Assembly: GCA_021469345.1 (NCBI GenBank)
Contig: GCA_021469345.1_3049.1
Strand: one strand, 5' to 3'
Origin: a phage
Length of the DNA stretch: 64,000 bases
Made by a program: the position numbers and the translations under genes
Part shown: positions 23,341 to 33,528 of the stretch, piece by piece
Position numbering within the stretch: position 1 is the stretch's first letter
Layout: each line of letters opens with the position of its first letter
The notes under the pieces: model-generated
What the model saw: the letters and a program-made list of their open reading frames with translations, nothing else
Database searches by the model: none
Told to the model about the DNA's origin: nothing

Positions 23341-23889
23341 ATGAAACAATACCAAGATTTAATTAAAGACATTTTTGAAAATGGCTATGAAATCGATGAC
23401 CGAACAGGTACAGGAACAATTGCTTTGTTCGGTACTAAATTGCGTTGGGATTTAACTAAAGGTTTTCCTGCAGTAACAACTAAGAAGCTCGCCTGGAAAG
23501 CTTGCATTGCTGAGCTAATATGGTTTTTATCAGGAAGCACAAATGTCAATGATTTACGATTAATTCAACACAATTCATTAATTCAAGGCAAAACAGTCTG
23601 GGATGAAAATTACGAAAATCAAGCAAAAGATTTAGGATATCATAGTGGTGAACTTGGTCCAATTTATGGAAAACAATGGCGTGATTTTGGCGGTGTAGAC
23701 CAAATTATAGAAGTTGTTGATCGTATTAAAAAACTACCAAATGATAGACGTCAAATTGTTTCTGCATGGAATCCAGCTGAAATCAATCAAATGGCATTGC
23801 CGCCCTGTCATATGTTCTATCAGTTTAATGTGCGTAATGGTTATCTTGATTTACAATGGTACCAGCGTTCTGTGGATGTATTCTTAGGT
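23341..23889 (+). CDS. td: thymidylate synthase, exon 1
   Basis: 183 codons ending ...QRSVDVFLG; 5' exon ends in U before the intron. Confidence 0.9.
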
Positions 23890-24904
23890 TAATTTAGGCC
23901 TGGGTATAAGGTGACTTATACTTGTAATCTATCTAAACGGGGGACCTCTCTAGTAGACAATCCCGTGCTAAATTGTAGGACTGCCCTTTAATAAATACTT
24001 CTATATAAAAGAGGTATTTATGAAAAGTGGAATTTATCAGATTAAAAACACTTTAAATGGTAAAGTGTATGTTGGAAGTGCTAAAGATTTTGAGAAAAGA
24101 TGGAAGAGACATTTTAAAGACCTTGAAAATGGTGTTCATTCTTCTATAAAATTTCAAAGGTCTTTTAATAAATACGGTAATGTTTTTGAATGCTCTATAC
24201 TGGAAGAAATTCCATATGAGAAAGATTTGATTATTGAACGAGAAAATTTTTGGATTAACGAGCTAAATTCTAAAATTAATGGATATAATATCGCCGATGC
24301 GTCCTTTGGTGATACATTTTCAAATCATCCATTAAAGGAAGAAATTGCTAAGAAACGAGCTGAAACGGTTAAAGCCAAGATGCTTAAGCTTGGATCTGAT
24401 GGTCGAAAAGCTATTTATGGTAAACACGGAAGTAAAAATGGTAGATGGAATCCGGAAAACCACAAGTTTTGTAAATGTGGTGTTCGTATACCAACTTCAG
24501 CCGACACCTGTGGAAAGTGTCGAAAACGTTCAGGTGAAAATAACCCGTTCTTTAATCATAGGCATTCAGAAAAAACTAAAACTAAACTATCAGAAAAGAT
24601 GAAAGGCAAAAAGCCATCTAACATCAAAAAGATTTCATGCGATGGGATTATTTTTGAATGTGCAGCCGATGCAGCTAGACATTTTGAAATTTCATCCGGA
24701 TTAGTTACTTACCGTGTAAAATCTGATAAGTGGAATTGGTTCTACATAAATGCCTAACGACTATCCCTTTAGGGAGTAGGGTCAAGTGACTCGAAACGAT
24801 AGACAACTTGCTTTAACAAGTTGGAGATATAGTCTGCTCTGCATGGCGACATGCAGCTGGATATAATTCCGGGATAAGATTAACGACCTTATCTGAACAT
24901 AATG
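23890..24904 (+). mobile_element. td group I self-splicing intron (1015 nt) with homing endonuclease ORF
   Basis: Starts TAATTTAGGCCTGGGTATAAGG..., ends ...CTGAACATAATG; exon 2 resumes LPFNIASYA. Confidence 0.85.
24020..24757 (+). CDS. I-TevI GIY-YIG homing endonuclease
   Basis: 245 aa; GIYQIKNTLNGKVYVGSA N-terminus and zinc finger CKCGVRIPTSADTCGKC. Confidence 0.9.
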   Translation: MKSGIYQIKNTLNGKVYVGSAKDFEKRWKRHFKDLENGVHSSIKFQRSFNKYGNVFECSILEEIPYEKDLIIERENFWINELNSKINGYNIADASFGDTFSNHPLKEEIAKKRAETVKAKMLKLGSDGRKAIYGKHGSKNGRWNPENHKFCKCGVRIPTSADTCGKCRKRSGENNPFFNHRHSEKTKTKLSEKMKGKKPSNIKKISCDGIIFECAADAARHFEISSGLVTYRVKSDKWNWFYINA

Positions 24905-25216
24905 CTACCGTTCAACATTGCATCATATGCTGCGTTAGTTCATATTGTAGCTAAGATGTGTAATCTTATTCCAGGAGATTTGATATTTTCCGGTGGTAAT
25001 ACTCATATCTATATGAATCATGTCGAACAATGTAAAGAAATTTTGCGTCGTGAACCTAAAGAGCTTTGTGAACTGGTAATAGGCGGATTGCCTTATAAAT
25101 TCCGTTATCTTTCTACTAAAGAACAATTGGAATATGTTCTTAAACTCAGGCCTAAAGATTTCGTTCTCAAAGATTATCAGTCCCACGGTGTTTTGAAAGG
25201 AAAAATGGCGGTGTAA
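24905..25216 (+). CDS. td: thymidylate synthase, exon 2
   Basis: 103 codons; joined product is 286 aa. Confidence 0.9.
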
Positions 25217-25500: not shown

Positions 25501-25780
25501 ATATAAATCCGACTTTGATGTTAATATTCACCGTGGTACATTTTGGGGAAATTACGTCGGTAAAGATGCTGGCAGCCGGGAGGCTGCCATTGAATTATTC
25601 AAAAAAGATTTTATACGTCGAATTAAATCTGGAGAAATAACTAAAGCACATTTAGAGCCTTTACGTGGAATGAGGCTAGGATGCACATGTAAACCAAAGC
25701 CGTGTCATGGTGATATAATAGCTCATATAGTTAACCGATTGTTTAAAGACGATTTTCAAGTTGAGGACTTATGCAATTAA
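25454..25780 (+). CDS. hypothetical Cys/His-motif protein (108 aa; [13 protein letters not shown])
   Basis: ORF track; overlaps the preceding ORF by 47 nt in another frame. Confidence 0.45.
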
Positions 25781-28035
25781 TTAATGTTATCAAAAGTAGT
25801 GGTGTTTCTCAGAGCTTTGACCCGCAAAAAATTATTAAAGTTTTATCTTGGGCAGCTGAAGGAACATCAGTCGATCCTTATGAATTATATGAAAATATTA
25901 AATCTTATCTCCGTGATGGAATGACAACTGATGATATTCAGACTATTGTCATTAAGGCTGCTGCGAATTCTATTTCAGTTGAAGAGCCTGATTATCAATA
26001 TGTAGCTGCACGTTGTTTAATGTTTGCTCTTCGTAAGCATGTTTACGGGCAGTATGAACCGCGTTCATTTATTGACCATATTTCTTACTGTGTAAATGAA
26101 GGTAAATACGACCCTGAATTATTGTCAAAATATTCAGCAGAAGAAATTACATTTTTAGAATCAAAAATTAAGCACGAACGGGATATGGAATTTACTTATT
26201 CCGGGGCGATGCAATTAAAAGAAAAATATCTAGTTAAAGATAAAACCACTGGTCAAATTTATGAAACTCCGCAGTTTGCATTTATGACTATTGGAATGGC
26301 ATTGCATCAAGATGAACCTGTTGATAGATTAAAACATGTTATTCGTTTTTATGAAGCAGTATCTACTCGACAGATTTCACTGCCAACTCCTATTATGGCT
26401 GGTTGTCGTACTCCGACTCGACAGTTTAGTTCATGCGTTGTTATTGAGGCAGGAGATTCATTGAAGTCTATCAATAAGGCTTCCGCTTCAATTGTTGAAT
26501 ATATCTCTAAACGCGCTGGAATTGGTATTAACGTTGGTATGATTCGTGCTGAAGGTTCTAAGATTGGCATGGGTGAAGTACGCCATACTGGTGTTATTCC
26601 TTTTTGGAAACATTTTCAGACTGCTGTTAAATCATGCTCACAGGGTGGAATTCGTGGCGGCGCTGCTACTGCTTATTATCCTATTTGGCATTTGGAAGTT
26701 GAAAATCTTCTCGTTTTGAAAAATAACAAAGGCGTAGAAGAAAACCGTATCCGTCATATGGATTATGGTGTTCAGCTGAATGACCTGATGATGGAACGTT
26801 TTGGAAAGAACGATTACATTACTTTGTTCAGTCCACACGAAATGGGTGGAGAGCTGTATTATTCTTATTTTAAAGACCAAGACCGTTTCCGTGAATTATA
26901 CGAAGCAGCAGAAAAAGACCCTAATATTCGTAAAAAGCGTATTAAAGCCCGTGAACTATTTGAATTGCTCATGACTGAACGTTCAGGAACAGCAAGGATT
27001 TATGTGCAGTTCATTGATAATACAAATAACTACACTCCGTTTATTCGTGAAAAGGCACCTATTCGTCAGAGTAACTTGTGTTGTGAAATTGCTATTCCAA
27101 CAAATGATGTGAATAGCCCTGATGCTGAAATTGGATTGTGTACCCTTAGCGCATTTGTGTTGGATAACTTCGATTGGCAAGACCAAGATAAAATTAATGA
27201 ATTGGCAGAAGTTCAAGTTCGTGCTCTTGATAATCTTTTGGATTACCAAGGATATCCAGTTCCTGAAGCAGAAAAAGCTAAAAAGCGTCGTAACCTCGGT
27301 GTAGGTGTTACTAACTATGCAGCTTGGCTGGCAAGTAACTTTGCTTCTTATGAAGATGCTAACGATTTAACACATGAACTATTTGAGAGATTACAGTATG
27401 GACTCATTAAAGCATCCATTAAGCTCGCCAAAGAAAAAGGACCTTGCGAATATTATTCAGACACTCGTTGGTCTCGAGGCGAATTACCTATCGACTGGTA
27501 CAATAAAAAGATTGACCAAATCGCAGCTCCAAAATACGTTTGTGACTGGTCGTCGCTGCGGGAAGACCTTAAGCTCTTTGGCATCCGTAATAGCACATTA
27601 TCAGCACTTATGCCATGTGAGTCATCTTCCCAAGTTTCTAACAGTACAAACGGTATCGAGCCTCCACGTGGACCAGTCTCTGTTAAAGAATCAAAAGAGG
27701 GCTCCTTTAATCAAGTCGTGCCCAATATTGAGCATAACATAGACCTCTATGATTATACATGGAAATTAGCTAAGAAAGGTAATAAACCTTATCTTACGCA
27801 GGTAGCTATTATGCTGAAATGGGTATGTCAATCAGCTTCAGCGAATACATACTATGACCCACAGATTTTTCCAAAAGGAAAGGTTCCAATGTCAATAATG
27901 ATTGATGACCTTTTGTATTTTTGGTATTTTGGCGGAAAAAATTTCTATTATCATAATACCCGTGATGGTTCTGGTACTGATGATTATGAAATAGAAACTC
28001 CAAAAGCTGAAGATTGTTCATCCTGTAAATTATGA
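25771..28035 (+). CDS. nrdA: ribonucleotide reductase large subunit
   Basis: 754 aa; N-terminal ATP-cone; length equals T4 NrdA. Confidence 0.95.
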   Translation: MQLINVIKSSGVSQSFDPQKIIKVLSWAAEGTSVDPYELYENIKSYLRDGMTTDDIQTIVIKAAANSISVEEPDYQYVAARCLMFALRKHVYGQYEPRSFIDHISYCVNEGKYDPELLSKYSAEEITFLESKIKHERDMEFTYSGAMQLKEKYLVKDKTTGQIYETPQFAFMTIGMALHQDEPVDRLKHVIRFYEAVSTRQISLPTPIMAGCRTPTRQFSSCVVIEAGDSLKSINKASASIVEYISKRAGIGINVGMIRAEGSKIGMGEVRHTGVIPFWKHFQTAVKSCSQGGIRGGAATAYYPIWHLEVENLLVLKNNKGVEENRIRHMDYGVQLNDLMMERFGKNDYITLFSPHEMGGELYYSYFKDQDRFRELYEAAEKDPNIRKKRIKARELFELLMTERSGTARIYVQFIDNTNNYTPFIREKAPIRQSNLCCEIAIPTNDVNSPDAEIGLCTLSAFVLDNFDWQDQDKINELAEVQVRALDNLLDYQGYPVPEAEKAKKRRNLGVGVTNYAAWLASNFASYEDANDLTHELFERLQYGLIKASIKLAKEKGPCEYYSDTRWSRGELPIDWYNKKIDQIAAPKYVCDWSSLREDLKLFGIRNSTLSALMPCESSSQVSNSTNGIEPPRGPVSVKESKEGSFNQVVPNIEHNIDLYDYTWKLAKKGNKPYLTQVAIMLKWVCQSASANTYYDPQIFPKGKVPMSIMIDDLLYFWYFGGKNFYYHNTRDGSGTDDYEIETPKAEDCSSCKL

Positions 28036-28051
28036 TATAATTACCACAAGG

Positions 28052-29644
28052 ATGTGGTTAACTAAGAATAACGCTATGTTTGATAATATATACAAAAACG
28101 GAAAGTTTCTTCCATTTGGAGAAGAAAAACTTAAATCTAGACTAACAGAAGAAGATAAAGCTCTTCTAACTGATGGAATAGATTTTAAGCTCAATGTGTT
28201 TCAAATTATGGAAGGCATTGACATTAACGATCTAAAATGTGCAGTTTGTGGAAATTTCATTTCTCTGAAAACAGCAAAGAAACGTGTATTTCCAGCAACA
28301 TGTAGTAAATCCTGCTCAGGGATATTTTTCGCGGATAAGAGAATTCAAAGCCGTGATACAAATTTTGGCGGAAAAGAAAAATATAAAAAATATTTGTCTG
28401 AACTTCAACACAAAAATTCTTTAGAAAAATATGGAACAACTCATCAAAAAATTTCAAGAAATAAAAATAGAAAAACTTTAATTGAACGATATGGGGTAAC
28501 GCATAATTCACAATTAGAAAGTGTGAAAGAAGCGAGAAAAGTTATAGAAAACGGTAAATCAGTTGATATTCTGCATTCTAAAAAATCTCGCGAAAAATCT
28601 AAGAAGACTAAATTAAATTGGACTGAAGAATATAAGGCATCGTTATATTCATCTATAGGAAAATCTATTAAAAATAACGGTCATATTAATCATGATATAC
28701 TAGATAAAATCAATTACAAAATTTCTATAGAAGAACTACAACAATTAGCAAATTGTTCTCGGATGACGGCTTATAGAGCTCTTTCATCCAAAGGACTAAT
28801 TGACGTTCATTATACTCAAAGTTCTATAGAGCAATTCATTTTAGATCTAGGATTTGATTGCGTAGAAACTAGAAAAATTATTCCTCCGTATGAATTAGAT
28901 ATTTACATTCCTGAGAAAAAATTGGCTATAGAATACGATGGAATTTATTGGCATTCTAGCGGGTCAAAGGAAACAGATAAAATTAAAGAAACTTATCATT
29001 TGATGAAGACAGAGATGTGTGAAGCACAAGGAATTCAATTACTTCACATCTTCGAAAATGAATGGATTGATGATACAAAAAGAGAGATCTGGAAATCCAT
29101 TATAAAGCATAAATTAGGATTATCAGAAAGAATACCAGCCCGAAAATGCAAAGCGCGTTTTGTTAATAAGGATGAGGCAAAAGAATTTATTAATAAGAAT
29201 CATCTTCAAGGATTTTGCTCGGGAGCTCATACGTATAAAGGACTTTATTACAATAATGAGTTAGTTCAAATTATTTCTATCGGTAAATCTAGATATAGCA
29301 CAGGTGATGAACTTTTAAGGATGTGTTCAAAATTGGGGGTTTGTGTTGTAGGAGGAGCCTCAAAATTATTAAAAGGAATTAATTGTCTATCTTATGGCAA
29401 TCGAAGATGGTGCAGTACATTATCAAATGTTTATGACTCTGTCATGGAATTTAGTCATATCTCTGAGCCATGTTATTGGTACGTCGATAAAGGAGAGGTA
29501 TTTCACCGCTCAAGCTATATGAAACATAAGCTTAAAAACAAGCTTAAAAATTATGATGATACAATAACTGAAGTAGAAAATTGTTATGCAAATGGTCTTA
29601 GAAGAATCTGGGACTGTGGAAATTTAGTTTACAGGACAAAATAA
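28052..29644 (+). CDS. 530-aa putative freestanding homing-endonuclease-like protein (zinc ribbon + Vsr/DUF559-like nuclease motif)
   Basis: CAVCGNF...CSKSC ribbon, repeated YG(T/V)THxxQ motifs, and YELDIYIPEKKLAIEYDGIYWH; sits where T4 carries mobE. Confidence 0.5.
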   Translation: MWLTKNNAMFDNIYKNGKFLPFGEEKLKSRLTEEDKALLTDGIDFKLNVFQIMEGIDINDLKCAVCGNFISLKTAKKRVFPATCSKSCSGIFFADKRIQSRDTNFGGKEKYKKYLSELQHKNSLEKYGTTHQKISRNKNRKTLIERYGVTHNSQLESVKEARKVIENGKSVDILHSKKSREKSKKTKLNWTEEYKASLYSSIGKSIKNNGHINHDILDKINYKISIEELQQLANCSRMTAYRALSSKGLIDVHYTQSSIEQFILDLGFDCVETRKIIPPYELDIYIPEKKLAIEYDGIYWHSSGSKETDKIKETYHLMKTEMCEAQGIQLLHIFENEWIDDTKREIWKSIIKHKLGLSERIPARKCKARFVNKDEAKEFINKNHLQGFCSGAHTYKGLYYNNELVQIISIGKSRYSTGDELLRMCSKLGVCVVGGASKLLKGINCLSYGNRRWCSTLSNVYDSVMEFSHISEPCYWYVDKGEVFHRSSYMKHKLKNKLKNYDDTITEVENCYANGLRRIWDCGNLVYRTK

Positions 29645-30319
29645 TGAGTACAGTTTTTAATACTAAACAGGTTGATGTTTTAACAGAACCCATGTTTTTT
29701 GGGTCTGGTCTTGGAATTGCGCGTTATGATATTCAACGACATAGGGTATTTGAAGAACTTATTGAACGTCAGCTCTCGTTTTTCTGGCGTCCTGAAGAAG
29801 TAAACTTGATGATGGATGCTACTCAATTTAATAAGCTTCCTCAGTATCAACAAAATATTTTTACTAATAATCTGAAGTATCAATCATTACTTGATAGTAT
29901 TCAAGGACGTGCGCCGTCTGCTGTACTTATGCCATTGCTTTCAGACCCAAGCCTTGATACATGGGTTGCTACGTGGACTTTTAGTGAAACTATTCACAGC
30001 CGTTCATATACACATATCATGCGAAATCTTTATACTGATCCATCGAAGGTATTTGATGAGATTGTATTAGATGAAGCTATTATGAAACGTGCTGAATCCA
30101 TTGGACGTTATTATGATGATGTTCTGATTAAAACCCGTGAATGGGAAAATGCTAAAGAATTTGTAGAACTAGCTAAAGAATCTCCTGATGCTGATTTTCG
30201 TTTAAACCGAGCTATTAAACAAGAAGCCGAAGCTAAACGTGCTTTAATGAAGTCTCTTTATCTCTGTTTGCACGTTATTAATGCCTTAGAAGCTATTCGT
30301 TTTTATGTATCTTTTGCGT
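29644..30319 (+). CDS. nrdB: ribonucleotide reductase small subunit, exon 1 (splice site inferred)
   Basis: Ends ...EAIRFYVSFA plus T; the in-frame stop begins the intron. Confidence 0.8.
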
Positions 30320-30402
30320 AAAATGCGCCTTTAAACGGTAACGTTTATCGAAAACTCCTTTAATTGCTGGAAAGTCCTTTATAGGAAAACTAGCAGCCAA
30401 GG

Positions 30403-30437
30403 TTTTGCTTGCACCTTTAATTAGTATAATATAAATA
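30403..30437 (+). promoter_or_regulatory. intron-internal promoters for I-TevIII: MotA-box-like TTTGCTTG + TATAAT, then late TATAAATA (30430-30437)
   Basis: TGCTT 14 nt upstream of TATAAT; exact TATAAATA overlapping it. Confidence 0.5.
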
Positions 30438-30464
30438 TGATTATACTTTTAAGAGGATGCACAA

Positions 30465-31274
30465 TTGAACTATAGAAAAATTTGGATAGATGCTAACGGA
30501 CCTATACCTAAAGATTCTGATGGAAGAACATACGAAATCCATCATAAAGACGGTAACCGTGAAAATAATGATTTAGATAATTTGATGTGCCTTTCTATAC
30601 AGGAACATTATGATATACATTTAGCTCAAAAAGATTACCAGGCTTGTCATGCTATAAAGCTTAGAATGAAATATTCTCCTGAAGAAATTTCTGAATTAGC
30701 TTCTAAAGCCGCAAAATCTAGAGAAATCCAGATTTTTAATATCCCTGAAGTACGAGCTAAAAACATTGCCTCTATTAAATCTAAGATAGAAAATGGTACA
30801 TTTCATCTTTTAGACGGTGAAATACAGCGTAAATCTAATTTAAATAGAGTTGCATTAGGTATACATAATTTTCAACAAGCTGAGCATATTGCAAAAGTTA
30901 AAGAACGCAATATTGCAGCTATAAAAGAAGGTACTCATGTATTTTGCGGTGGTAAAATGCAGTCAGAAACTCAATCAAAACGGGTAAATGACGGTTCACA
31001 TCATTTCTTGTCAGAAGACCATAAGAAAAGAACATCAGCAAAAACATTAGAAATGGTTAAGAACGGGACCCATCCTGCACAAAAAGAAATCACATGTGAT
31101 TTCTGCGGTCACATTGGTAAAGGTCCTGGATTTTATCTAAAACATAATGACAGATGTAAATTAAATCCAAATAGAATTCAATTGAATTGTCCATATTGTG
31201 ATAAGAAAGATTTATCACCATCAACATATAAACGATGGCACGGCGACAATTGCAAAGCAAGGTTCAACGACTAG
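30465..31274 (+). CDS. I-TevIII-like H-N-H homing endonuclease, full length (269 aa)
   Basis: H-N-H-like YEIHHKDGNRENNDLDNLMCL and C-terminal CDFCGH...CPYCDKK zinc motifs; apparent TTG start after SD AAGAGGA. Confidence 0.75.
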   Translation: MNYRKIWIDANGPIPKDSDGRTYEIHHKDGNRENNDLDNLMCLSIQEHYDIHLAQKDYQACHAIKLRMKYSPEEISELASKAAKSREIQIFNIPEVRAKNIASIKSKIENGTFHLLDGEIQRKSNLNRVALGIHNFQQAEHIAKVKERNIAAIKEGTHVFCGGKMQSETQSKRVNDGSHHFLSEDHKKRTSAKTLEMVKNGTHPAQKEITCDFCGHIGKGPGFYLKHNDRCKLNPNRIQLNCPYCDKKDLSPSTYKRWHGDNCKARFND

Positions 31275-31410
31275 TCTTCGGACGTAGGGTCAAGCGACTC
31301 GAAATGGGGAGAATCCCTCTGGGATTGTGATATAGTCTGGTCTGCATAGTAATATGTAGCAGTTCATAAGAGAACGGGTTGAGAATTAGCGAGCTCAATC
31401 GAACATAACG

Positions 31411-31913
31411 GTACCTTTAACTTCCACAAGAATATGGAAATCATGGAAGGTAATGCCAAGATTATGAAGTTCATTGCACGTGATGAGCAGCTTCACCTTA
31501 AAGGCACCCAATATATTATTCGTCAGCTTCAATCCGGTACTGATGGTGATGAATGGGTTAAAATTGCTCAAGAGTGTGAACAAGAAGCAGTTGATATTTT
31601 CATGGAAGTTAACCGTCAAGAAAAAGATTGGGCAGTTCATTTATTTAAAGATGGTGATGTTCCTGGATTAAATACAAATAGCATGTGGAGCTTTATTGAT
31701 TACTTAACTGTATCTCGTATGAAACAGTGCGGTCTTCCATGCCCAATTACCGATGCTCCGGTTAAACATCCATATCCTTGGATTCGTGAATATCTTAATT
31801 CTGATAATGTTCAATCTGCGCCACAAGAAGTAGAACTGTCATCTTACCTTGTTGCACAGATTGATAATGATGTTGATGATAAAGTTATGATGAGTTTTAA
31901 AAAATATTTTTAA
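31411..31913 (+). CDS. nrdB: ribonucleotide reductase small subunit, exon 2
   Basis: ...MEIMEGNAKIMKFIARDEQLHLKGTQYII...; joined product about 392 aa. Confidence 0.8.
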
Positions 31914-31917
31914 GGAG

Positions 31918-31940
31918 TGGGCCGCAAGGCCCATTTTATT
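31918..31940 (+). terminator. hairpin after nrdB (GGGCC-GCAA-GGCCC + ATTTTATT)
   Basis: GC stem followed by a T-rich tract. Confidence 0.4.

Positions 31941-33528
<1,588 letters not shown>

Follow-up and report, generated by a model that had tools for sequence, protein, structure and literature searches.

The nrdB locus of a T-even-like phage: a probable full-length, RB3-type group I intron with the I-TevIII gene

Described nrdB introns and their endonucleases

The closest described system is the nrdB intron of phage RB3 (X59078, AY262130, NC_025419), the full-length form of which was described by Eddy and Gold (cited in PMC1865063). Purification of the RB3 endonuclease, I-TevIII, was reported by Robbins et al. 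2007 (PMC1865063), who also found that it drives homing and that the intron of RB3 is mobile. Each of the substitutions H26A, H27A, N39A and H48A abolishes cleavage, and C211/C214 together with C242/C245 define two CX2CX12-13HX3C zinc fingers that are needed for DNA binding (PMC1865063). I-TevIII is a dimer and makes the double-strand break as a dimer, which distinguishes it from the GIY-YIG monomers I-TevI and I-TevII. It also differs from I-HmuI of phage SPO1, which likewise combines an H-N-H module with an extended DNA-binding region in a phage group I intron but nicks one strand and cuts intron-containing alleles too (PMC1865063). The T4 td intron with I-TevI and the nrdD intron with I-TevII resemble the locus described here in that a group I intron interrupts a nucleotide-metabolism gene and an open reading frame (ORF) is looped out of the core.

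In phage T4 (NC_000866), autocatalytic, guanosine-dependent splicing of the nrdB intron was shown in literature cited by PMC2790892. The H-N-H domain of T4 I-TevIII has been lost, and homing therefore depends on MobE in trans (PMC2790892). In the T4 record, the nrdB intron is labelled 'group 1A intron' and the I-TevIII entry reads 'defective DNA endonuclease encoded by group 1A intron in nrdB, deletion in proximal half'. The T4 intron ORFs have their own middle and late promoters, which were mapped for all three by primer extension, a hairpin that sequesters the ribosome-binding site (RBS) and an operator-like copy of the homing site, for which a role as putative autorepression operator has been put forward (reviewed in PMC2988022).

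The window analysed here is a phage DNA stretch of 64,000 nucleotides (GCA_021469345.1), and the intron that interrupts its nrdB gene is, with a probability of about 95%, the full-length (RB3-type) mobile group I intron of T-even nrdB with an intact I-TevIII. Insertion site, boundaries and length (1,091 nt) are those of RB3, and 1,089 of the 1,091 nt match. One of the two differences, at position 30764, is synonymous, and the other, at 30531 (T here, G in RB3), replaces one residue (Y23 here, D23 in RB3), with 268 of the 269 amino acids identical. Both introns share the 269-aa ORF with its TTG start, the H-N-H domain, the two zinc fingers, the promoters and the hairpin, and the original RB3 record X59078 annotates the same I-TevIII CDS. 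The two loci differ in the gene upstream of nrdB, which is mobE in RB3 and hef in the window. Comparison with a T4-type copy, for which RB59 (classified as Tequatrovirus T4) was used, showed that insertion site and ribozyme core are the same and that the C-terminal, zinc-finger portion of the ORF is retained. At 598 nt, the T4-type intron corresponds to the window intron minus 30529-31019 (491 nt), minus two single bases and with 7 substitutions, two of which together turn an A-U pair of P9 into G-C, a compensatory change. An earlier note on this DNA, which had suggested aligning it with the RB3 and T4 introns, described the T4 ORF as truncated and inactive; the T4-type alignment and the NC_000866 annotation agree with this.

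The RB3-type nrdB intron and its I-TevIII are already known in detail and widespread in sequenced phages, and their presence here is not unusual. A megablast search with 30200-31500 against 50,697 phage records matched 664 T4-like records, 85 of them over the whole query. The best matches were AV121 and NIC06P2 (99.8% identical), while RB3 and its siblings RB5-RB10 were 99.3% identical over the 1,301-nt query; the records of the RB3 group annotate 'nrdB (joined CDS)' and 'I-TevIII homing endonuclease'. In a translated search with I-TevIII, at least 80% of the ORF was recovered in 88 records and the C-terminal third only (T4-type) in about 30, so the full-length form is present in about 85-88 GenBank phage records. 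A coordinate coincidence with phage Pu-Krd-SF1 (one-base offset) was dismissed, as this phage lacks hef and is only 98.3% identical. The result matters little beyond annotation: the phage has a textbook intron in its mobile, full-length form.

Exons, splice junction and ribozyme core

The coordinates of all features are collected in Table 1. The nrdB-like ORF 29644-30321 terminates in ...AIRFYVSFA followed by a stop codon, at the point (after ...YVSFA) where the earlier note had placed the interruption. The junction proposed there, 30319/31411, turned out to be exact, and the intron, estimated at ~1.09 kb, measures 1,091 nt. Joining the two exons, of 676 and 503 nt, gives a length divisible by 3 and so leaves the frame intact; the product is a 392-aa NrdB that reads ...YVSFACTFNFHKNMEIMEGNAK... 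over the junction and is colinear with the intronless NrdB of T6, the alignment of the spliced protein being gapless across the junction (...RFYVSFACTFNFHKNMEIMEGNAK...). At the nucleotide level, intronless T6 reads TTTTGCTTGTACC and the joined exons of the window read TTTTGCGT followed directly by GTACC. The junction is unique, since a shift of one base either way alters the spliced sequence. A group I intron follows a 5′ exon whose last base is U and itself ends in G; the U pairs as a U.G wobble with the internal guide sequence in P1. Both bases are found where the earlier note had claimed them: a T (U in the RNA) is the last base of the exon at 30319, the U30319.G30325 wobble closes a 4-bp P1, and G31410 is the last base of the intron.

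Table 1. Positions of the nrdB exons, the intron and its elements in the 64-kb window, with the basis of each assignment
Feature	Position	Strand	Description or basis
hef	28052-29644 (possibly from 28010)		530-aa ORF between nrdA (25771-28035) and nrdB; 99.9% nt identical to U5 hef
nrdB exon 1	29644-30319	+	676 nt; ORF list and T6 NrdB comparison; last base U30319
5′ half of ribozyme core	30316-30413	+	fold model, pair counts, SP21535 Rfam alignment
P1	30316-19/30325-28	+	fold model
Intron	30320-31410	+	1,091 nt, group I (probably subgroup IA2-type), ends G31410; RB3 match and Rfam RF00028
P2	30332-37/30342-47	+	GUAA loop; fold model; two compensatory pairs
P3	5′ strand 30355-60, 3′ strand 31306-11	+	fold model
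P4	30364-70/30390-96	+	fold model
P5	30375-78/30383-86	+	fold model; one compensatory pair
P6/P6a	5′ strands 30397-98 and 30405-13; 3′ strands 31251-62	+	fold model
MotA-box-like TTTTGCTTGC	30403-30412	+	8/10 consensus positions, including TGCTT core
Homing-site copy, putative I-TevIII operator	30403-30420	+	16/18 nt match to TTTTGCGT joined to GTACCTTTAA
RNA hairpin predicted to sequester RBS	30410-30461	+	folding against shuffled sequences
-10 element TATAAT (sigma-70)	30425-30430	+	putative middle promoter, read from sequence
Late-promoter motif TATAAATA	30430-30437	+	overlaps TATAAT; read from sequence
Shine-Dalgarno AAGAGGA	30451-30457	+	of I-TevIII ORF
I-TevIII ORF	30465-31274	+	TTG start, 269 aa; ORF list, RB3 alignment, Pfam
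H-N-H domain	30474-30608 (aa 4-48)	+	Pfam HNH_3
Segment absent from T4-type intron	30529-31019	+	491 nt; I-TevIII aa ~22-185 including H-N-H motif
Linker repeats	30738-31079 (aa ~92-205)	+	five tandem ~21-24-aa repeats; sequence inspection
Zinc finger 1	31095-31157 (aa 211-231)	+	CX2CX12-13HX3C motif
Zinc finger 2	31188-31253 (aa 242-263)	+	CX2CX12-13HX3C motif
3′ half of ribozyme core	31251-31410	+	Rfam RF00028, fold model, pair counts
P7	31269-73/31333-37	+	fold model; pseudoknotted with P3
P7.1	31274-76/31281-83	+	UUCG loop; fold model
P7.2	31287-91/31296-31300	+	fold model
P8	31312-17/31321-26	+	fold model
P9	31342-48/31353-59	+	GUAA loop; fold model; compensatory A-U to G-C change
P9.1	31362-65/31372-75	+	fold model
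P9.2	31377-83/31394-31400	+	fold model
nrdB exon 2	31411-31913	+	503 nt including stop codon; ORF list and T6 NrdB comparison

Detection of the ribozyme core by covariance models was affected by the ORF. A scan of 4 kb (29000-33000) with Rfam gave no match to RF00028 (Intron_gpI), because the 0.8-kb ORF interrupts the model, and the 3′ half alone (31150-31430) scored 29.2 bits (E = 7.5e-6), below the gathering score of 50, again because the ORF splits the model. The T4-type locus was scanned as well, together with the natural ORF-less allele of Shigella phage SP21535. This 300-nt allele, whose sequence equals that of the window over the 273 nt compared (core and exon ends), reached 69.1 bits (E = 1.3e-17) against the gathering score of 50. 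It is through the SP21535 allele, above the RF00028 threshold, that the conserved P3-P8 core with its P3/P7 pseudoknot is recognised. The Rfam alignment of this allele places P2, P3, P4, P5, P6, P8 and P9 as in the fold that was written out by hand for the window.

The folding of the intron from P1 to P9, which the earlier note had proposed as a check, was carried out as a model that runs from P1 to P9.2 with P7.1 and P7.2 and contains 75 pairs in 14 helices, all 75 of which form. Pairs were counted over six distinct nrdB introns (window, T4-type, S16, AV109, Pu-Krd-SF1 and HY03). Paired cells amounted to 99.3%, against 33-41% when the partners were slid by 1-3 columns, but the fold was derived from the window's own sequence, one of those aligned, which inflates the percentage and makes it weaker evidence than the compensatory changes. 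Such double changes were found in four pairs, with P2 contributing two and P5 and P9 one each; covariation backs only these three helices, because the remaining ones are invariant among the six introns and hence uninformative. An unconstrained minimum free energy (MFE) fold of an ORF-deleted construct recovered ten helices (P1, P4, P5, P6a, P7, P7.2, P8, P9, P9.1 and P9.2); it was dropped as a structural model because it missed P2, P3 and P7.1 and wrongly joined 30337-45 to the 3′ end in a long-range pairing. Two local variations accompany the model: in T4-type alleles a C.A mismatch takes the place of the P6a pair 30408-31257, and the alternatives for P9.1 are local pairing or pairing with 31401-04.

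In subgroup IA2, to which the phage T4 introns belong, the extra helices P7.1 and P7.2 lie between P7 and the 3′ strand of P3. In the window, the interval between P7 and P3′ holds two hairpins, 31274-83 with a UUCG loop and 31287-31300, and all of their pairs are invariant in the alignment. The stop codon of I-TevIII (UAG, 31272-31274) falls within P7/P7.1, so that the last bases of the ORF also belong to the ribozyme core. A BLASTN search with the 3′ core (31251-31410) found a related segment in hundreds of phage records, whose hosts include Staphylococcus, Bacillus, Pectobacterium and Yersinia; among the matches inspected, one is annotated 'intron_gpI' and another as a split td gene.

An arrangement without any intron, in which nrdB would be split or pseudogenised, its halves translated separately and a free-standing HNH gene placed between them, corresponds to the annotation found in many deposited T4-like genomes. 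The GenBank records listed by megablast frequently show two separate nrdB CDSs ('ribonucleotide reductase beta subunit') together with a 'homing endonuclease' or a 'hypothetical protein'. Contrary to this, the second half would have to start at an internal methionine (31434) and would not contain the residues that are conserved across the junction. The intervening sequence includes a complete group I core, whose score exceeds the Rfam threshold when the ORF is absent, it shows compensatory base changes, and the RB3 and T4 records annotate a joined CDS, with that of T4 naming a group IA intron. The split-gene arrangement is therefore extremely improbable, and annotation as two nrdB fragments plus a hypothetical protein is wrong in many records. 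The appropriate annotation of nrdB is a single joined CDS (29644-30319 + 31411-31913) within which I-TevIII is nested.

The intron is real and in all likelihood functional. Its sequence identity to the introns studied previously suggests that it is self-splicing: it would excise itself from the nrdB pre-mRNA by a guanosine-initiated two-step transesterification that joins U30319 to G31411, and the spliced mRNA, which would encode the 392-aa NrdB, would read ...TTTTGCGT joined to GTACCTTT.... Just 3′ of the nrdB stop codon, a GC-rich hairpin (GGGCC-GCAA-GGCCC) followed by a U-rich run occupies 31917-31948 and overlaps the start region of denA (ATG 31942); it is probably a terminator or an RNA-stability element. 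The only Rfam match in the scan of 29000-33000, to L20_leader, falls on this hairpin and was attributed to chance.

The I-TevIII gene and its expression signals

The intron contains, as the earlier note had claimed, a 269-aa ORF with H-N-H-like and zinc-finger motifs. Pfam recognises the HNH_3 domain in aa 4-48 (E = 6e-13, 48.7 bits against a cutoff of 24.8), and all residues found by experiment to be required in RB3 I-TevIII (H26, H27, N39, H48, C211, C214, C242 and C245) are present together with both finger motifs (aa 211-231 and 242-263). The proposed TTG start lies 8 nt after the Shine-Dalgarno (SD) sequence, is conserved in every homologue examined and is the start annotated in the RB3 records. 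Between the H-N-H domain and the two zinc fingers lies a linker made of repeats, each of which ends in G-[TSI]-[HF] (aa 111, 132, 156, 177 and 201). Pfam did not recognise these repeats (aa ~92-205), and the deletion of T4 removes four of the five. A Pfam match to FlgM over aa 74-114 (26.2 bits against a cutoff of 25) was judged spurious, and a sequence search of the PDB with I-TevIII gave no significant match to solved structures.

Closer alignment uncovered no inactivating change, in line with the expectation of an intact endonuclease. The sole amino acid difference from RB3 I-TevIII is D23Y (Tyr here, Asp in RB3), three positions before H26. Tyrosine occurs in all six other sequences examined, among them those of AV121, U5, S16, Pu-Krd-SF1 and HY03. 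Y23 is thus the usual residue, with D23 of RB3 as the outlier, and D23Y was rejected as an inactivating change. Because RB3 I-TevIII, with D23, is the only assayed enzyme and residue 23 is so close to the catalytic H26/H27, it could still be argued that the intron splices while the Y23 enzyme is inactive or weakened, the intron being a passenger moved in trans by Hef in the way that MobE moves the defective T4 intron. The gene hef lies immediately upstream of nrdB, Hef is reported to cleave nrdB (PMC2988022), and homing of a defunct I-TevIII intron in trans through a neighbouring endonuclease has been documented (PMC2790892). The distribution of sequences argues against this explanation and makes it very unlikely. 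Y23 is also found in S16, the most divergent full-length orthologue (89% amino acid identity over 268 aa), the 269-aa frame is open in about 88 records, and genuine decay in this family has come about through frameshifts or deletions (U5, T4, AV109 and SP21535), none of which is present in the window copy. As judged from sequence, the I-TevIII of the window, with Y23, would be expected to cut and home like the assayed D23 enzyme. Its gene would be looped out of P6a and would specify a dimeric H-N-H endonuclease with two C-terminal zinc fingers; in a mixed infection, repair from the intron-containing genome would copy the intron and flanking exon into the intronless allele, that is, homing.

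The signals that may control the ORF lie in the 5′ part of the intron. The earlier note had mentioned a MotA-box-like and a TATAAATA promoter, and both motifs are present (30403-30412 and 30430-30437) in an arrangement that matches the published regulation of the T4 intron ORFs (PMC2988022). In T4 middle promoters the MotA box, (a/t)(a/t)(a/t)TGCTTtA, precedes a good sigma-70 -10 element by 12 ± 1 bp (PMC2988021); the spacer between TTTTGCTTGC and TATAAT is 12 bp, so that the predicted MotA/AsiA-dependent middle promoter has the published geometry. These motifs were read directly from the sequence because the sigma-70 promoter and terminator scan, which was uninformative (13 sites against 11.5 expected), models neither MotA nor late promoters. 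The hairpin 30410-30461 has a folding energy of -14.9 kcal/mol (z = -4.4), and none of 200 shuffled sequences (0/200) folds as well. It pairs the GAGG of the SD sequence (30453-30456) with CCUU (30414-30417) and carries the late promoter in its loop and upper stem. The copy of the homing site at 30403-30420 is the only match in the 64-kb window; it has two mismatches, 0.10 such matches are expected by chance, and it overlaps the MotA box TTTTGCTTGC. Taken together with the T4 precedents, these elements are consistent with transcription of the I-TevIII ORF from its own MotA-dependent middle promoter and from the TATAAATA late promoter. In read-through nrdB transcripts the hairpin would hide the ribosome-binding site, whereas transcripts from the intron's own promoters would not contain the 5′ arm of the hairpin and would expose it. 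With its position over the promoter, the operator-like homing-site copy may permit autorepression.

The hef gene, the mosaic exon 1 and other intron forms

Upstream of nrdB, hef occupies the place of mobE. The Hef homing endonuclease was reportedly first described in phage U5. In Pfam, the hef product of the window gives a weak, sub-threshold match to REase_MTES_1575 only. The hef-nrdB locus of U5 (AY262133) has a hef that is 99.9% identical in the same place and an nrdB intron that is also of the long type, but its I-TevIII is interrupted by a 2-nt deletion (window 30620-21) whose frameshift leaves 65 aa, and a 6-nt deletion (window 30428-33) affects the promoter/hairpin region. The 15 hef genomes listed cover at most 92% of a 6-kb locus query, which is consistent with a shortened intron. 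Five of the hef genomes (G8, FL23, F26, Manna and FL12) match only I-TevIII aa ~181-269, as T4 does, and others keep still less: FL18 and ESh36 match from aa 188, SG1 over aa 226-268 only, and SP21535 has no ORF. Among the matches listed from the collection of 50,697 phage records, no other record combined hef with an intact full-length I-TevIII. The presence of hef instead of mobE beside nrdB is only a mildly new point.

Exon 1 of nrdB is a mosaic. Its ~676 positions include 108 that differ from exon 1 of U5, most densely within the last 180 nt. The first 50 nt show 1 difference from U5 and 7 from RB3, while the last ~180 nt show 5 differences from RB3 and 66 from U5 and are thus RB3/AV121-like. 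This terminal part is very unlike U5, T4 and T6, and it includes the indel that makes NrdB 392 instead of 388 aa long. The pattern points to recombination or to co-conversion tracts originating in the homing elements on either side. There are roughly even odds that the mosaic reflects two overlapping co-conversion tracts and that the full-length, functional-looking I-TevIII intron and the intact hef supply two unrelated nrdB-targeting endonucleases that are active side by side; if this is true, the locus could serve to study cooperation or competition between homing elements. The combination of hef, an intact I-TevIII and a mosaic exon 1 adds one more data point on the shuffling of homing elements in the T-even nrdA-nrdB region.

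Two further deletion forms of the nrdB intron were encountered. In SP21535 (PQ615101; 1121-1420 of the compared locus sequence) the entire I-TevIII ORF is deleted precisely between two ACAATTG direct repeats (window 30459-30465 and 31246-31252), and 6 nt of the late-promoter region are also absent, as in U5. A third deletion form, found in AV109 (Mosigvirus), is 592 nt long (421-1012 of the compared locus sequence) and joins codons 1-22 of I-TevIII, in frame, to the C-terminal portion with the zinc fingers, which results in a 101-aa ORF. Elsewhere in the window, td (thymidylate synthase) is split as well (23341-23892 + 24902-25216, within the region 23341-25216), and a 245-aa ORF between its halves (24020-24757) matches the GIY-YIG, zinc-finger and DNA-binding domains of I-TevI; by these matches, the phage apparently also carries the td intron with I-TevI intact.
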